Origin: a virus
Strand: one strand, 5' to 3'
Length of the DNA stretch: 64,000 bases
Virus record (IMG/VR): IMGVR_UViG_3300011113_000747
Span: 120,543 to 184,542 of that record
This document shows positions 50,198 through 63,034 of this stretch, piece after piece. Every line of letters begins with the position of its first letter. Position 1 is the first letter of the stretch. A program made the position numbers and the translations under genes. The notes under the pieces were generated by a model. That model was not told where the DNA came from. It made no database searches and worked only from the letters and a program-made list of their open reading frames with translations.

Positions 50198-50608
50198 ATG
50201 GATAAACTTCAAAAGCTATTTGACATTGGATTTAGACAAATTGGTAAATGGAATTGTAATCCTAATCTTCAACTTGAAAGAAGCTTCAAAGGTACGCGTA
50301 AGAACGTCCTGTATGCCTTTGTTGTAGATGGTGAGCCTATGTATGTGGGTAAAGCAGGAGACTTTATGGGTGTTATGAACGCTTATAGGCATCCTGGTAA
50401 ACGCTCAACACGCATTCGAATCAAACAACATCTCATCGATCGAATTGAAGCTGGGTGTAATGTTATTGTTTTAATGTTCGAACAAACAGATGATATGTAC
50501 TTTCATGGGATTAAGCTCAATCTCTGCCATGCCCTTGAAGAAGAAATTATTAAAATTATGAACCTTGAATGGAATATAATTGGTAAGGTAAAAGGAACAA
50601 ACGTATAA
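50198..50608 (+). CDS. GIY-YIG nuclease, T4 endonuclease II (DenA)-like
   Basis: NVLYAFVVDGEPMYVGKA..LEEEIIK.MN.EWN parallels T4 EndoII. Confidence 0.6.
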   Translation: MDKLQKLFDIGFRQIGKWNCNPNLQLERSFKGTRKNVLYAFVVDGEPMYVGKAGDFMGVMNAYRHPGKRSTRIRIKQHLIDRIEAGCNVIVLMFEQTDDMYFHGIKLNLCHALEEEIIKIMNLEWNIIGKVKGTNV

Positions 50609-50615
50609 TAGATTT

Positions 50616-52244
50616 ATGGAAAGCAAAGAACCAAACATTACTGCTATCAAAGGTATTATCCGAGACCGGAATATCTGCGGTTACAATGATAAGCGCAAGA
50701 ATGGTCGTCGTATCAAGATCACCTCATGTATCTCTCATGCTGACCAAGATCTACTCGAACGTGTTTTGCCGCAATGTTACCCGCAGTATAAAGTAGCGGT
50801 TGGTAACTATATTACCAAACCTAGTTGGGGTAAGCCATATGTAGCTACCGCAATTCATTTTCGGAATAAGTAATTGATATGACTATTACCCTTCAAATTC
50901 CTGATCAAACATTGAGTAAATACTCAAACTTTATTGAAGCAGGTACTGGTGTCCCAGGACCTCAAACTGCAGAAGAGTGGTCACTATACATTACTGATAC
51001 AATAATCAATAATTATATGACAGAAAAATTCGGCACTGATAACAATAATGTTGAGTTTATCTAATGATTGTTGCAGATAAAAATAATAACATAATCAAAG
51101 TTGGATCTACTCTTTCAATAAGAGGGGTTGATCATAAAGTGATTGATATAATCTTACCATCAACCATAGAGGGTTACCTTATAGTAATGGACAACACAAA
51201 TGGCAATACTTATAAGGTATACCCAACTCTTTTTGGTGGGAAGTGGGATAGAGATAGAGAATACATTATAGGTAAAACTCCCACTAAAAAGAATTTGATT
51301 TCTAAGGGAAAGAAATTATAATTATAGGGTAAGAAAGATTAAATGCTCCAGTGGCGAAATTGGCTGAAACGCATGAGATTTAAAATCTCATACCCACGAG
51401 GTAAACACTGTCGGTTCGAATCCGACCTGGAGTACCATTTTCAAAAGGAAAGTCTATATAATTAAAACATGAAGTATGTCCCAAAAGTTCCTAGTGTTGT
51501 TGAAGCTAAGACTCTCCTCGGTCAAGGTAAGTTCCCTTATTACCATCCTTGTAGTGTTTGTGGTAAAGCTTGCTCTACTCCAACTAAAGTCTTCTGGCAG
51601 AAACGCCTCAATGAGTTTGGCTCTGTAGAAGAACTCTATAGTAAGTTTACTTGCCGTGATTGCCGCAAGAGCAAGAAGCAGCTCAAGAAAGAACGCGTAG
51701 CTGCTCTAGTTGGTAGTTCTAGTTCTGTATCTACTTTGTATCAGCGTAAGCCGGGTGATGCAATCAAAATTGCTCCAGGTCATATCGGCTTCTCTGTCTG
51801 GGAAGATGGTAAGTTTCTCGGCACCACTATGCATCGTTTGGTTGACAAACAAAAGAATTAAGGAACAAAGATATAATAGATTTATGAACAAATATAATAA
51901 AGGTAAAACCGAAAAGGTTATTGAAACTGAGTTCTACCATCGTAGGTGGAATGGTAGTGGTTTTCATTCACATCACAACAAGCTGACTGGTGCGTTTGGA
52001 ATCACCAAGAAGGAATGGTTCCGAATGGTTGAAGATCGTAATCGTAAAACTAAAGCTCTTCGTCAGAAAATCAAAAACGGAAAATAATATGAGTGATAAA
52101 GTAACTGTGAATGCAGGTGGTGGTGGCTGTTTTAGTCTTATTCTTACCATCATGGTTTTGTGGGCTCTTTGGTTTGGTCTGCCAACTCCATGGGGTGTAT
52201 TTGAGATTGATATCTTTCCTCCGGGATTGTTTATCAATAGGTGA
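50616..52244 (+). other. Hypothetical ORFs 50616-50873, 50879-51064, 51064-51321, 51469-51861 (CxxC..CxxC zinc ribbon), 51884-52087, 52089-52244
   Basis: Co-oriented, with starts adjacent to promoters. Confidence 0.6.
51345..51437 (+). tRNA. tRNA-Leu(TAA)
   Basis: GCTCCAG/CTGGAGT acceptor stem; TGAGA-TTTAAAA-TCTCA; variable arm TACC/GGTA; GTCGG-TTCGAAT-CCGAC; encoded CCA. Confidence 0.93.
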
Positions 52245-52251
52245 GTTTAAT

Positions 52252-52326
52252 GCGCTTGTAGCTTAAAGGTGAAGCGGGGGTCTCATAAACCCTAGAGTGT
52301 TGGTTCAAGTCCAACCGGGCGCACCA
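52252..52326 (+). tRNA. tRNA with CAT anticodon (elongator Met or Ile2)
   Basis: GCGCTTG/CGGGCGC; loop CTCATAA; T arm GTTGG-TTCAAGT-CCAAC; CCA; lacks initiator features. Confidence 0.9.
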
Positions 52327-52331
52327 ATTTC

Positions 52332-52440
52332 GACTCAGCAGCGTGGACAGTGACATGCATGGCATTATAACAAGGCAATACCTAGTCCGCTATGTAGTCT
52401 TGCAAGGGCGGAGCTGGTGCAATTCCAGCCTGAGTCACCA
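52332..52440 (+). ncRNA. tRNA-like RNA A (109 nt, no canonical anticodon arm)
   Basis: GACTCAG/CTGAGTC acceptor stem, A73 + CCA, D stem GCGT/ATGC, T arm GCTGG-TGCAATT-CCAGC, 54-nt middle. Confidence 0.75.
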
Positions 52441-52443
52441 AAT

Positions 52444-52535
52444 AGGAGGATAGTTTAACACGCGAAAACCAGAGTTGTATTGGCAACCGCCTTGAGTGGC
52501 ATCTGATGCAGGTTCAAGGTCTGCTCCTCCTTCCA
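52444..52535 (+). ncRNA. tRNA-like RNA B (92 nt, branched structure in place of the anticodon loop)
   Basis: AGGAGGA/TCCTCCT acceptor stem, U73 + CCA, D stem GTTT/AAAC, T arm GCAGG-TTCAAGG-TCTGC. Confidence 0.78.
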
Positions 52536-52775
52536 ATTTTTATGAAAGAAAATACTGAAATAGATGAATTGCAGAGAAGATTGCATGACGCTCATGAATC
52601 ATCTGCAATGCTGCGAGACAAAATTGATCATTTAAAAGCTGAGATAGAAGATGCAAAGAACATTCTTCGCAAAGAACTTGATAGAGATTATGATGCTCAA
52701 GACACGCTGCGTACTTTAGTTGTTGTAGCTACAAATGCACTCTTTTATGCAAGAGGAAATAAACTATAATTAGAT

Positions 52776-53378
52776 ATGTCAAAAATCTTCTTCACCTCCG
52801 ACACCCATTTCGGACACGCCAACATCATCAAGTATTGCGCCAGGCCTTTTGCTGATGCCAATGACATGAATGAAAAGCTCATTGCCAATTGGAACAATGT
52901 TGTCTCTCCTGATGATGTTGTTTACCATCTTGGTGACTTTGCATTTGGCAGCATCTCTGATGTCAATCGTGTGATGCATCGTCTCAACTTTGCTCACATG
53001 CACTTCATCAAAGGCAACCACGACAAGCCTTTTCTTAATTGGTACAATGATTATAAGTGCGGCAATGATGCACTTGCGCGCAAAGTGACCATCTATCCTC
53101 ACTTTCTGGAGACCAACATCAACAAGCAGAAGTTTGTGCTGTGTCACTACGCAATGAAGGTATGGAATGAAAGTCATCGTGGAGCACTGCACCTGTATGG
53201 ACATTCGCATGGTACTCTGCCAGATGATCCCAACTCCAAGAGCTTTGATGTTGGTGTGGATTGCCACAACTACCATCCCATCAGCTTGGAACAAGTGCTA
53301 GAGATCATGGACAAAAAGAAGGTGGAGAACAATTTTGAGAATCTACCTGGCGTCAAAGCAGGCATCATCAGAGAATAA
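52776..53378 (+). CDS. Calcineurin-like phosphoesterase
   Basis: FFTSDTHFGH, YHLGDF, GNHD, LCHYA, HLYGHSH, DVGVD. Confidence 0.92.
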   Translation: MSKIFFTSDTHFGHANIIKYCARPFADANDMNEKLIANWNNVVSPDDVVYHLGDFAFGSISDVNRVMHRLNFAHMHFIKGNHDKPFLNWYNDYKCGNDALARKVTIYPHFLETNINKQKFVLCHYAMKVWNESHRGALHLYGHSHGTLPDDPNSKSFDVGVDCHNYHPISLEQVLEIMDKKKVENNFENLPGVKAGIIRE

Positions 53379-53381
53379 CAG

Positions 53382-53418
53382 TTGACTAGATTAGGAAACT
53401 CGCTATAATAATTGTATG
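53382..53418 (+). promoter_or_regulatory. Example sigma70-type promoter: TTGACT-N5-AGGAAA-N5-TATAAT-N6-ATG
   Basis: Near-identical layout before 33241, 49210, 54518 and 55527. Confidence 0.8.
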
Positions 53419-54417
53419 AAATTAGCTTCTATTGAACTCATCTCTAACATTCAACCTCATCCCAATGCTGATAAATTGGACCTAGCTAAGGTGCTAGGCT
53501 ACACCTGCATCATTGAAAAGGGCAAATACAAAGTTGGTGATGCAGTTGTGCTCATTCAGCCTGATACTGTGCTGCCTGACAAACCATGGGCTGAAGTGTT
53601 CAAGAAGAAAGGCAATCGCACCAAAGCCATCAAGCTCCGCGGTGTGTGGTCTTTTGGTATTGTCATGAGTCCTTATGATGTTTGCGACTTGAGCGATCTC
53701 AAGGGCATGCTGCTGCCCAGCAACATTGGCAAAGACATCTCTGAACGCATTGGAGTTACCAAGTACGAAGCTCCTCAGCCTCAGCAGCTGGACGCCAAAG
53801 GTCACTTGCCATTTGGTCTGGGTAAGACTGATGAAGAACGCTATCAGAACATTCTTGATTTGCCATTCGGTGAAATTGTTGATGTGACTCTCAAGATTGA
53901 TGGTCAGAGCGCCACTTACTACTGCCGCAAGGATCGTGAGACTGGTGAGTGGCATACTGGCATCTGCTCTCGCTCTCTTGAAATGAAGCCAGAGTGCAGC
54001 AACAATTACACTCGCATCAATATCAAGTATGACATTCTCAGCAAGCTACTCAACTATTGCAGCTTTAATGACGTGAGTTTGGCTCTGCGTGGAGAGATTT
54101 TTGGAAACAACATTCAAGGTCATGGCAACAATCCTCATGCCAAGATGCCTCTGGACTTTGCTGCGTTTAGTGTTTACAACTTTGATACCTTTCAGTATGA
54201 AAACACTGATGATGCTCACAATTATGTGAATGTGTGTAATGCATTGCAACTCCCAACTGTGCCTATCATTGCCACCAACATCCTCACTCCAGAGCTCATC
54301 AAGCACTATGCTGAAGACATCTCTGAAATTGATGGCAAGCCTTTTGAAGGTGTGGTCATCAAGCACAGCAAAGGATCGTTTAAAATTATCAATTTGAGTT
54401 ACGATTCTGGAAAGTAA
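53416..54417 (+). CDS. RNA ligase, DRB0094/Rnl5-like (N-terminal OB domain)
   Basis: KLASI..I.PHPNADKL, KTDEER.QN, motif I KIDGQS, LRGEIFG, EGVVIK. Confidence 0.9.
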   Translation: MKLASIELISNIQPHPNADKLDLAKVLGYTCIIEKGKYKVGDAVVLIQPDTVLPDKPWAEVFKKKGNRTKAIKLRGVWSFGIVMSPYDVCDLSDLKGMLLPSNIGKDISERIGVTKYEAPQPQQLDAKGHLPFGLGKTDEERYQNILDLPFGEIVDVTLKIDGQSATYYCRKDRETGEWHTGICSRSLEMKPECSNNYTRINIKYDILSKLLNYCSFNDVSLALRGEIFGNNIQGHGNNPHAKMPLDFAAFSVYNFDTFQYENTDDAHNYVNVCNALQLPTVPIIATNILTPELIKHYAEDISEIDGKPFEGVVIKHSKGSFKIINLSYDSGK

Positions 54418-54517: not shown

Positions 54518-55760
54518 ATGAACGAAAATACACCTACCATTCAAAACACTCTCGAAAATGCCCTCATCACCTCCATCGAGGGTATCAAAAAGACCGGTAC
54601 AGAGCTTGTTGATGCTCTTTATCAGCAAGCCCCTGAAGTAATTGAGCAACTTTTATTGTGGCATGGTGTTGAATCATTTATTCTGTTCTTAGTATCGCTA
54701 GCAATGCTCAGTGTGCCGTTTATTTTTTATAAATTGGCTGCGGCTGCTTATACGAAGTTCAACGTCGCAAAAATGAGCGATGAATTTCCTTATTGGATGA
54801 TTACTATTGTATCTGGAATTGTTTCAATAACAGCCTCTACCGCAATGGCCATTGATCTAATGAACCTCAAATGGCTCAAAATCTGGCTGGCTCCAAAAGT
54901 TTACTTGCTGGAATATTTGACCACTTTGGTGAAATAAGTTGATTGTGACAAAACCTCTACCATAATATCAACATGAACAACAATAGCATCGTCGTTTATC
55001 GATCTGAAATGGAGCGTATGCAAGATGAATTTTGGATGGACTTTATGTCTTCCAATGCATCTTGGATGCAATACGTTATTATGGCATTCTTTGGCTTCCT
55101 CATTCTTTTCATTCTCGGTGTGTTCTGCACCGTCATTTACAACATGTTCAAGTTTCGCAAAACCTTCAAACGCTAATTCATTATGAATCCCCTTATTGCA
55201 TTTCTTCTTGACTATCTTGCTGGCGTCTTTGTTATGGCAATCATCACTCGTTATGAGAATGCCAAAGAAAAAAGCAAACAAACATGCTTGGACCCCAGCT
55301 TCAGCTTGCTGTCTTGGATTGGTGTTGCTATATACGTTATTTGCACTTTGGAAAAATCTTACAAAAATGGCTTCATTGCCAAGCTACTCAACTACACCGA
55401 CAAAGAGTAATGCTACCATACATCATCGTTGCCATTTGGTTGGTGCTGAGCATGTTGGCTTTGTGTTTGTTCAACACAAATGCAGATAACAGTTGATTTG
55501 ATTAGGAAAATCCACATAATATCAACATGAACAAAACCTCACAATACTCCACTGAAATTCAATACAAAGTTAGGGACAATGAAAACCAACAATTCATCCA
55601 AGTTGCTCCTGATGCAGCTGGATTTGGCTGCGTTGAAGTTGCTTACATAAAAGATGGCATTATTGATCGTACTGATCGTATCACCATGCCGCCTGAAATG
55701 GCTCTGCTGGTTGCAGAAGCTATTAAGAAGGTTGCAGAACATATTATTACTAATGAGTAA
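54518..55760 (+). other. Small, mostly membrane ORFs 54518-54937, 54973-55176, 55183-55410, 55527-55760
   Basis: Hydrophobic segments; three have (T/C)ATAAT-N6-ATG. Confidence 0.6.
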
Positions 55761-62956: not shown

Positions 62957-63034
62957 ATCCGGGCATGTTCCAAGGCAAGGCGACTTTGACTCCAAATCAG
63001 AGTGAGTAGAGTTCGATTCTCTATCCGGATGCCA
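62957..63034 (+). tRNA. tRNA-Trp(CCA), slightly non-canonical
   Basis: ATCCGGG/TCCGGAT; TTTGA-CTCCAAA-TCAGA; TAGAG-TTCGATT-CTCTA; G73 + CCA. Confidence 0.85.

Follow-up and report, generated by a model that had tools for sequence, protein, structure and literature searches.

A conserved tRNA-shaped RNA gene with a branched junction in place of the anticodon arm in a distant relative of phage T4

The last 64 kb of a complete 184,542-bp IMG/VR virus record (hereafter the window; coordinates refer to it unless stated otherwise) contain a tRNA-like RNA gene of 92 nt, here called B, at positions 52444..52535 of the + strand. B appears to derive from tRNA-Trp, has no anticodon loop and encodes its own U-CCA end. 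Taking the sequence comparisons together, we consider it probable that B is a selected, tRNA-Trp-derived and stable RNA without a decoding role, akin in kind to the small RNAs RNAC and RNAD of phage T4 and to a group of RNAs from other phages that we name B2. The phage that carries B is a distant relative of T4; its T4-type gp23 capsid protein is recognized at 301.6 bits and is only ~34% identical to that of any cultured phage.

The frame of B is that of a tRNA. The 5' strand of the acceptor stem, AGGAGGA (52444..52450; this and the following parts are on the + strand), forms 7/7 pairs with the 3' strand TCCTCCT at 52525-52531, which continues into a discriminator T and the encoded CCA (T-CCA at 52532-35, the entire 3' part being 52525..52535). 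A TA linker joins the acceptor stem to the D arm, GTTT-AACACGCGA-AAAC (52453..52469), whose 4-bp stem is formed by the strands 52453-56/52466-69. The T arm, GCAGG-TTCAAGG-TCTGC (52508..52524), has a 5-bp stem closed by a G53-U61 pair. Between D and T arms, in place of the anticodon arm, lies a three-way junction (52470..52505): a CAGA/TCTG helix (52470-73/52502-05) encloses, in this order, hairpin 1 (GTTGT-ATTG-GCAAC, 52474-87), a C, hairpin 2 (GCC-TTGAGT-GGC, 52489-500) and an A, and is followed by an AT linker to the T arm. The centre of B is in other words a 4-bp helix around 28 nt that make up two hairpins, with loops of 4 nt and 6 nt. Nucleotide 26 is missing, and a 7-nt anticodon loop (5-bp stem, U33, purine at 37) is not available in B. 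All 28 of the 28 base pairs are standard in both known copies. The earlier note on this DNA had described intact acceptor, D and T arms with a CCA end, and a branched junction closed by CAGA/TCTG where the anticodon loop should be; its coordinates and pairings are confirmed, and the description of B as a tRNA-shaped gene without a usable anticodon loop, its 4-bp helix branching into two hairpins, stands.

Under constraint of the acceptor and T arms, ViennaRNA gives precisely the branched structure first described for B. For the unconstrained full-length sequence the minimum free energy structure is a different fold (z = -0.70), and the 36-nt centre taken alone does fold into the three-way junction, at -8.9 kcal/mol, a value not better than that of shuffled sequences (p = 0.23). 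The case for the branched junction is made by perfect pairing and conservation, not by energy or covariation. As for the tRNA frame itself, both strands of the 184.5-kb genome were scanned for a 7/7 acceptor stem, a 5/5 T stem and NCCA, and the matches with a TTCRA-type T loop all fall in tRNA clusters, either the main one (50-59 kb) or small arrays in the 64-kb window; a chance origin of the frame is thus excluded. All tRNA genes of this phage that were found in the scan encode NCCA.

Two of the tools that the earlier note had named as checks on its reading gave B neither a default tRNA call nor a family match. Run at default settings on the window, ARAGORN reported a tRNA-Leu, a tRNA-Met and a tRNA-Trp only, and Rfam yielded no RF00005 match to B, whether the gathering score or E up to 10 was applied. 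Other identities were considered and rejected: neither tmRNA (RF00023) nor YrlA (RF02553) matched B with E allowed up to 10, and a ribozyme, hammerhead or otherwise, is contradicted by the lack of an Rfam match and by the absence of A9 and GAA of the hammerhead core. Nor is B coding, given that its internal ATG (at 52506), in frame with the next ORF in the window, is out of frame in the sister phage introduced below, with a stop after 12 codons.

The sole homolog of B that we found lies at 5056-5148 of L002, a locus in a 224,703-bp sister phage. The two copies are separated by 2 substitutions and 1 indel in 92-93 nt: A1 is replaced by G (A-U to G-U), the D loop carries a substitution at the position of G18, and an extra A is present in the same loop. 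No GG pair remains in the D loop, G18 being C in the window and T in the L002 copy. No difference falls in the 66 nt that run from junction to CCA, and the branched insert is thus 100% identical. By comparison, the genes shared around B are 73-91% identical at the DNA level between the two phages, and the adjacent phosphoesterase and the RNA ligase differ at 18.1% and 28.5% of their third codon positions, respectively. At the rate of 18.1%, the probability of at most 2 substitutions in 92 nt is 2.4e-6, and that of none in 66 nt is 1.9e-6. The conserved block (52412-52546) is flanked on both sides by unrelated or diverged DNA; the centre of the upstream RNA, mimic A, has been replaced between the window and L002, and the ORFs downstream of B are unrelated. 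The orthologous true tRNAs of both phages are 87-100% identical, a range that includes B, which therefore behaves like a working tRNA gene. On these alignments B is a real RNA gene under purifying selection, and the view of B as a selected gene is upheld by there being too few changes relative to the third codon positions of neighbouring genes. The high identity could partly reflect a recent exchange of a cassette between the two phages. The elbow of B is degenerate (G18 lost, G-U at 53-61), which fits a use away from the ribosome and also fits early decay. A pairing between mimic A and B was rejected, the complementary stretch in the centre of mimic A not being kept in L002.

Searches for further copies covered several collections. 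Pattern scans of IMG/VR with the T arm plus acceptor, with hairpin 1, with the loops only, with the 5' half plus T loop and with CAGAG...TCTGAT...T arm returned L002 and chance matches only; blastn of cultured phages with B gave nothing significant, and bacterial genomes, scanned for a 20-mer of B and separately for the 5' block of mimic A, yielded nothing. A covariance model of B, named R2, scores 116.5 and 120 bits, exclusively in the genomes of the window's phage (G000) and of the sister phage (G001). Over 41 viral records and 78 loci it recovers, beyond the two copies of B, ordinary tRNAs and B2 RNAs only. Relatives were also sought through the adjacent phosphoesterase in IMG/VR and metagenomes; besides the enzyme of the sister phage (95%), the closest are 73-78% identical in amino acid sequence and lack the RNA block.

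The ancestry of B is still readable. Its first 26 nt match the tRNA-Trp(CCA) of the T4-like Cronobacter phage S13 (KC954775, record positions 122991-123066) at 23/26 positions, a similarity that spans the acceptor 5' strand, U8-A9 and a nearly identical D arm. The G6-C67 pair of B corresponds to C6-G67 in the S13 tRNA-Trp, a compensatory change, and pair 1-72 is A1-U72 in both the window copy and S13 and G1-U72 in L002. The T stem resembles that of another phage tRNA-Trp. When 325 distinct tRNAs were ranked for their likeness to the B frame, Trp(CCA) took the first three places, two of these three having been fetched for their resemblance to B, which biases the ranking toward similarity, not toward Trp. 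The identity elements of bacterial-type tRNA-Trp are the CCA anticodon and the discriminator G73. The CCA triplet is absent from the central 36 nt of B and the discriminator is U; compared with phage tRNA-Trp(CCA), B has thus lost the anticodon arm with its CCA, G73 (now U), G18, and C61 (now U, hence G53-U61). Two ordinary tRNA-Trp genes exist elsewhere in the phage genome. B would accordingly be a paralogue of a phage tRNA-Trp that retains acceptor stem, D and T arms and the encoded CCA. ARAGORN places a tRNA-Trp(CCA) at 62957-63034 of the window, below the Rfam gathering score.

B is the last member of a short array. A canonical tRNA-Met(CAT) (52252..52326, +; called by ARAGORN and at 66 bits by Rfam) is followed by mimic A (52332..52440, +; 109 nt), which ends 3 nt before B, the two spacers being 5 nt and 3 nt. 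The nearest upstream match to a sigma-70-like promoter, from a consensus scan only, is TTGATT-16-TATAAT at 51295..51322 (+), and the same scan shows no promoter or terminator match between that site and B. Past the CCA of B, a 75-aa coiled-coil ORF (52542..52769, +) starts after 6 nt; in L002 an unrelated ORF starts after 5 nt. Positions 52776-54417 hold a calcineurin-like metallophosphoesterase gene (PF12850, phrog_547) and then an RNA ligase gene (PF09414 plus a PHA02142 OB domain), 241 nt and 881 nt downstream of B, respectively. The two enzymes are a possible RNA end-healing and sealing pair beside RNA genes. Nevertheless, relatives exist that have the phosphoesterase without the RNA block, which makes its adjacency to B weak evidence. 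In one of these, the metagenome relative L161 (phosphoesterase 78% identical in amino acids; its positions 1-660 against window 51884-52776), the homolog of ORF 51884-52087 abuts the phosphoesterase gene, a layout which indicates that the 51-aa ORF, tRNA-Met, mimic A, B and the 75-aa ORF form an insertion/deletion cassette.

Mimic A belongs to a wider family, with copies in the window and L002 and in L279 (three copies), L290, L312, L317, L330 and L331, in phages of widely differing size and GC content. In its members a hypervariable centre separates a conserved block of 27 nt at the 5' end (GACTCAGCGGCGTGGAcAGtGACACGC) from a T arm (CTGGTGCAATTCCAGCC, then TGAGTCACCA), acceptor strand and ACCA that are conserved as well. 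Rfam gives no match on the family, which is apparently uncatalogued. Every copy is followed, after a spacer of 3-4 nt, by an RNA with a terminal helix and an NCCA-like tail. The family reaches into unrelated phages of ~50-65 kb, where similarly 'plugged' tRNA frames stand behind it. One such frame is B2, a 103-nt tRNA frame that occurs as follower or second follower of mimic A relatives at L290 865-967, L317 4319-4421 and L279 2892-2994. Its anticodon stem, UCAGA/UCUGA, contains the same CAGA/UCUG as B and is then followed by AU; its anticodon loop is a 23-nt hairpin, and a short variable arm is added. Rfam calls B2 a tRNA at 34.4 bits, above threshold, with the 23-nt insert exactly in the anticodon loop, and the only differences among the three copies lie in loops or turn A-U into G-U. 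We found no annotation of the B2 RNAs anywhere.

B2 resembles B in its place 3-4 nt after an A-family or similar CCA-tailed RNA, in its tRNA frame, in the CAGA/UCUG stem plus AU, in a GCAGG-TTCRA T arm and in having a structured anticodon loop. It differs in a 5-bp D stem with a tetraloop, in the single 23-nt hairpin and the extra variable arm, in a CCA that is not always encoded, and in passing the Rfam tRNA threshold, below which B remains. The R2 model scores B2 at 21-26 bits, the same as ordinary tRNAs. Homology of B and B2 is plausible on the grounds of position, the shared 4-bp stem and the T arm, without a significant score. Around the RNAs, the window and the mimic A/B2 loci (L290, L317, L279) have no proteins in common, which points to a partner in the host.

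Three side observations touch these RNAs. The exact 17-mer CTGGTGCAATTCCAGCC is present in 74 IMG/VR viral contigs (L257-L329), many of which use it as the T arm, with UGCAAUU as T loop, of apparent tRNAs (Tyr GUA, Met/Ile CAU and others), so that T loops with G55 are seemingly common in phage tRNAs. The sister phage has another tRNA-like RNA with an inserted hairpin, of 104 nt and with an AUCA end (G001:C1:42893-42996; L256 394-497), which has no ortholog in G000. A further tRNA-like RNA with an inserted hairpin, of 114 nt and with a UGCAAGU T loop, is found in a 282.9-kb phage (G018:C1:22088-22201; L252).

Among known RNAs, the closest parallels in arrangement are RNAC (species 1) and RNAD (species 2) of T4, whose roles are unknown (PMC3014915, PMC9697503). 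There the order is tRNA-Arg, RNAD, RNAC, the small RNAs standing behind the last tRNA of a T4-type array at distances of a few nucleotides, and RNAC folds into a terminal helix and a T arm (TTCGAAT) without an anticodon arm, as B combines a terminal helix and a canonical T arm. The earlier note had likened B to the T4 small RNAs, and the placement of B indeed mirrors the T4 layout; its description of both T4 species as ending in CCA is only partly right, as rnaC has no encoded CCA end in the T4 record. There is no sequence relation, R2 matching only tRNA-Leu over the T4 tRNA region, and B is smaller (92 nt versus 139 and 119 nt) and, unlike the T4 RNAs, keeps a D arm, a perfect acceptor stem with encoded CCA and a readable tRNA-Trp ancestry. 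A distant relative of T4 thus keeps a T4-like arrangement in which a tRNA is followed by tRNA-shaped RNAs without anticodons. Beyond phages, tRNA-shaped RNAs that do not decode include mascRNA of MALAT1 and the vtRNAs of the gammaherpesvirus MHV68, which are matured by RNase P and RNase Z and receive a CCA. They belong to another domain of life, are unrelated to B in sequence, and have anticodon arms that are shortened, not branched.

We put forward the following scheme for B. It would share with tRNA-Met and mimic A a transcript begun at the promoter-like site at 51295, be excised by the tRNA-maturation enzymes of the host, with RNase P acting at the 5' end and trimming at the 3' end to the encoded CCA, and would accumulate as a stable 92-nt RNA unable to read codons. 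Each of the 20 amino acids is served by a canonical or non-canonical tRNA gene of the phage, and B is therefore not needed for decoding. Two of the genes in question are candidates with irregular frames, a tRNA-Tyr (CTGTAAA arm near G000 50432, ~50385-50475) and a tRNA-His (CTGTGAA arm near G000 55024, ~54985-55075), both uncalled by ARAGORN, Rfam and the scan for 7-bp acceptor and 5-bp T stems. As to what B does once made, the possibility that we favour is speculative, and we give it limited credence: acting in trans, the tRNA-shaped RNA would be a ligand or decoy of a host factor whose recognition depends on the acceptor/T-arm half or the CCA and not on the anticodon. Its target might be a toxin or a defence enzyme directed at the acceptor, or else a protein that processes or binds tRNA, and the conserved junction would either keep B off the ribosome or supply a second binding surface. 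A decoy for anticodon nucleases is unlikely, and the least likely of the functions first proposed, because the anticodon loop that these enzymes recognize is absent from B. Current work on tRNA-targeting defences and on phage tRNAs makes the question of non-decoding look-alikes timely, and B and mimic A offer a comparative handle on them, with compact constructs (~300 nt for tRNA-Met, A and B).

In an alternative scenario, B acts in cis as punctuation for RNA processing: its tRNA shape would recruit RNase P and 3' processing, the cut in the polycistronic transcript would free the downstream mRNA with a leader of 5-6 nt, and the excised RNA would have no role. In keeping with this, B lies within what appears to be an mRNA unit and has no promoter or terminator match close by, and the next ORF starts 6 nt (window) or 5 nt (L002) past the CCA, though the two ORFs are unrelated. 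Nevertheless, a minihelix of acceptor and T arm would suffice for such a purpose, which leaves the absence of substitutions across the 36-nt junction and the conservation of the D arm unexplained; for cutting, three tRNA-shaped elements side by side would be more than is needed; and downstream of the B2 relatives there is a promoter-like site or non-coding sequence, not an ORF. We regard punctuation as an unlikely explanation of B.

Decidedly unlikely, too, is the proposal that B is a decaying tRNA-Trp pseudogene or a recombination scar, conserved only through recent transfer of a cassette. The losses listed above (anticodon, G73, G18 and C61) are what such a history might leave, only two genomes carry B, the whole tRNA-Met/A/B block is missing from L161, and the region is a mosaic of cassettes. 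Against this, all 28 of 28 pairs are intact, 12 of them in the arm that has been replaced, and the change at 6-67 is compensatory. The block of identity is moreover short and flanked by diverged DNA, with the centre of mimic A replaced, and the same design recurs in unrelated phages.

A third proposal, that B is charged by a synthetase blind to the anticodon (of the Ser, Ala or Leu type, or a phage enzyme) and delivers its amino acid to a non-ribosomal acceptor, is very unlikely. It would make sense of the intact acceptor stem, CCA end and canonical TTCAA core of the T loop, and the D loop of B resembles those of the phage's own tRNA-Ser. But B has no G3-U70 pair and no long variable arm at the normal position, U73 is not the discriminator of Ser, Leu or Trp, and no synthetase or transferase gene lies nearby.

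Least credible, to the point of being nearly dismissed, is a tRNA-Tyr(GUA) precursor from which an endonuclease would remove an insertion by the anticodon loop, leaving the RNA ligase and phosphoesterase encoded nearby to join the ends. The idea was suggested by the downstream genes of these two enzymes and the TTGTATT after the CAGA(G) strand, together with the outcome of ARAGORN when introns were allowed and the threshold lowered: B in both phages is then called tRNA-Tyr(gta) with an 8-nt intron. The modelled tRNA has a U37 and a mismatch in its rebuilt stem, and the same settings yield spurious calls both for mimic A and for the reverse strand, as well as differing anticodons among the B2 orthologs, so an intron-containing tRNA was judged probably not to be the identity of B. 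Furthermore, U73 is not the bacterial Tyr discriminator, the frame of B is Trp-like and not Tyr-like, the main cluster has a proper CTGTAAA arm in the candidate tRNA-Tyr noted above, and the phosphoesterase occurs in relatives without the RNA genes. If true, the splicing of B would be a case of protein-catalysed tRNA splicing in a bacterial virus.

The wider tRNA complement of the phage holds other genes of note, and standard tRNA finders miss many RNA genes in such phages. The main tRNA cluster (G000:C1:50267-56981, locus L076, outside the window) comprises 21 tRNAs called by ARAGORN and, in addition, ~14 cloverleaf genes with normal anticodon loops that ARAGORN missed and Rfam mostly missed (Phe, Ser x2, Pro, Lys, Leu, Thr x2, Met, Glu, Asp, Arg and Val). 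In most of these the T loop is not of the TTC type (AGCGTTA, TGCAAnn, GGCAGnA, CGCAAnT) and the D loop has no GG. Against the sister phage the ~14 genes show 87-100% conservation, and their differences include pair-preserving and compensatory ones. Within the same cluster region, a CCA-ended element of 99 nt at G000:C1:51929-52027 has two T-arm-like hairpins, no anticodon arm and a weak match to the tmRNA model (25.8 bits). A full-length tmRNA (RF00023, 105 bits) is encoded at G000:C1:58900-59343 (L076 8901-9344), directly after a 96-nt tRNA-Ile(TAT).
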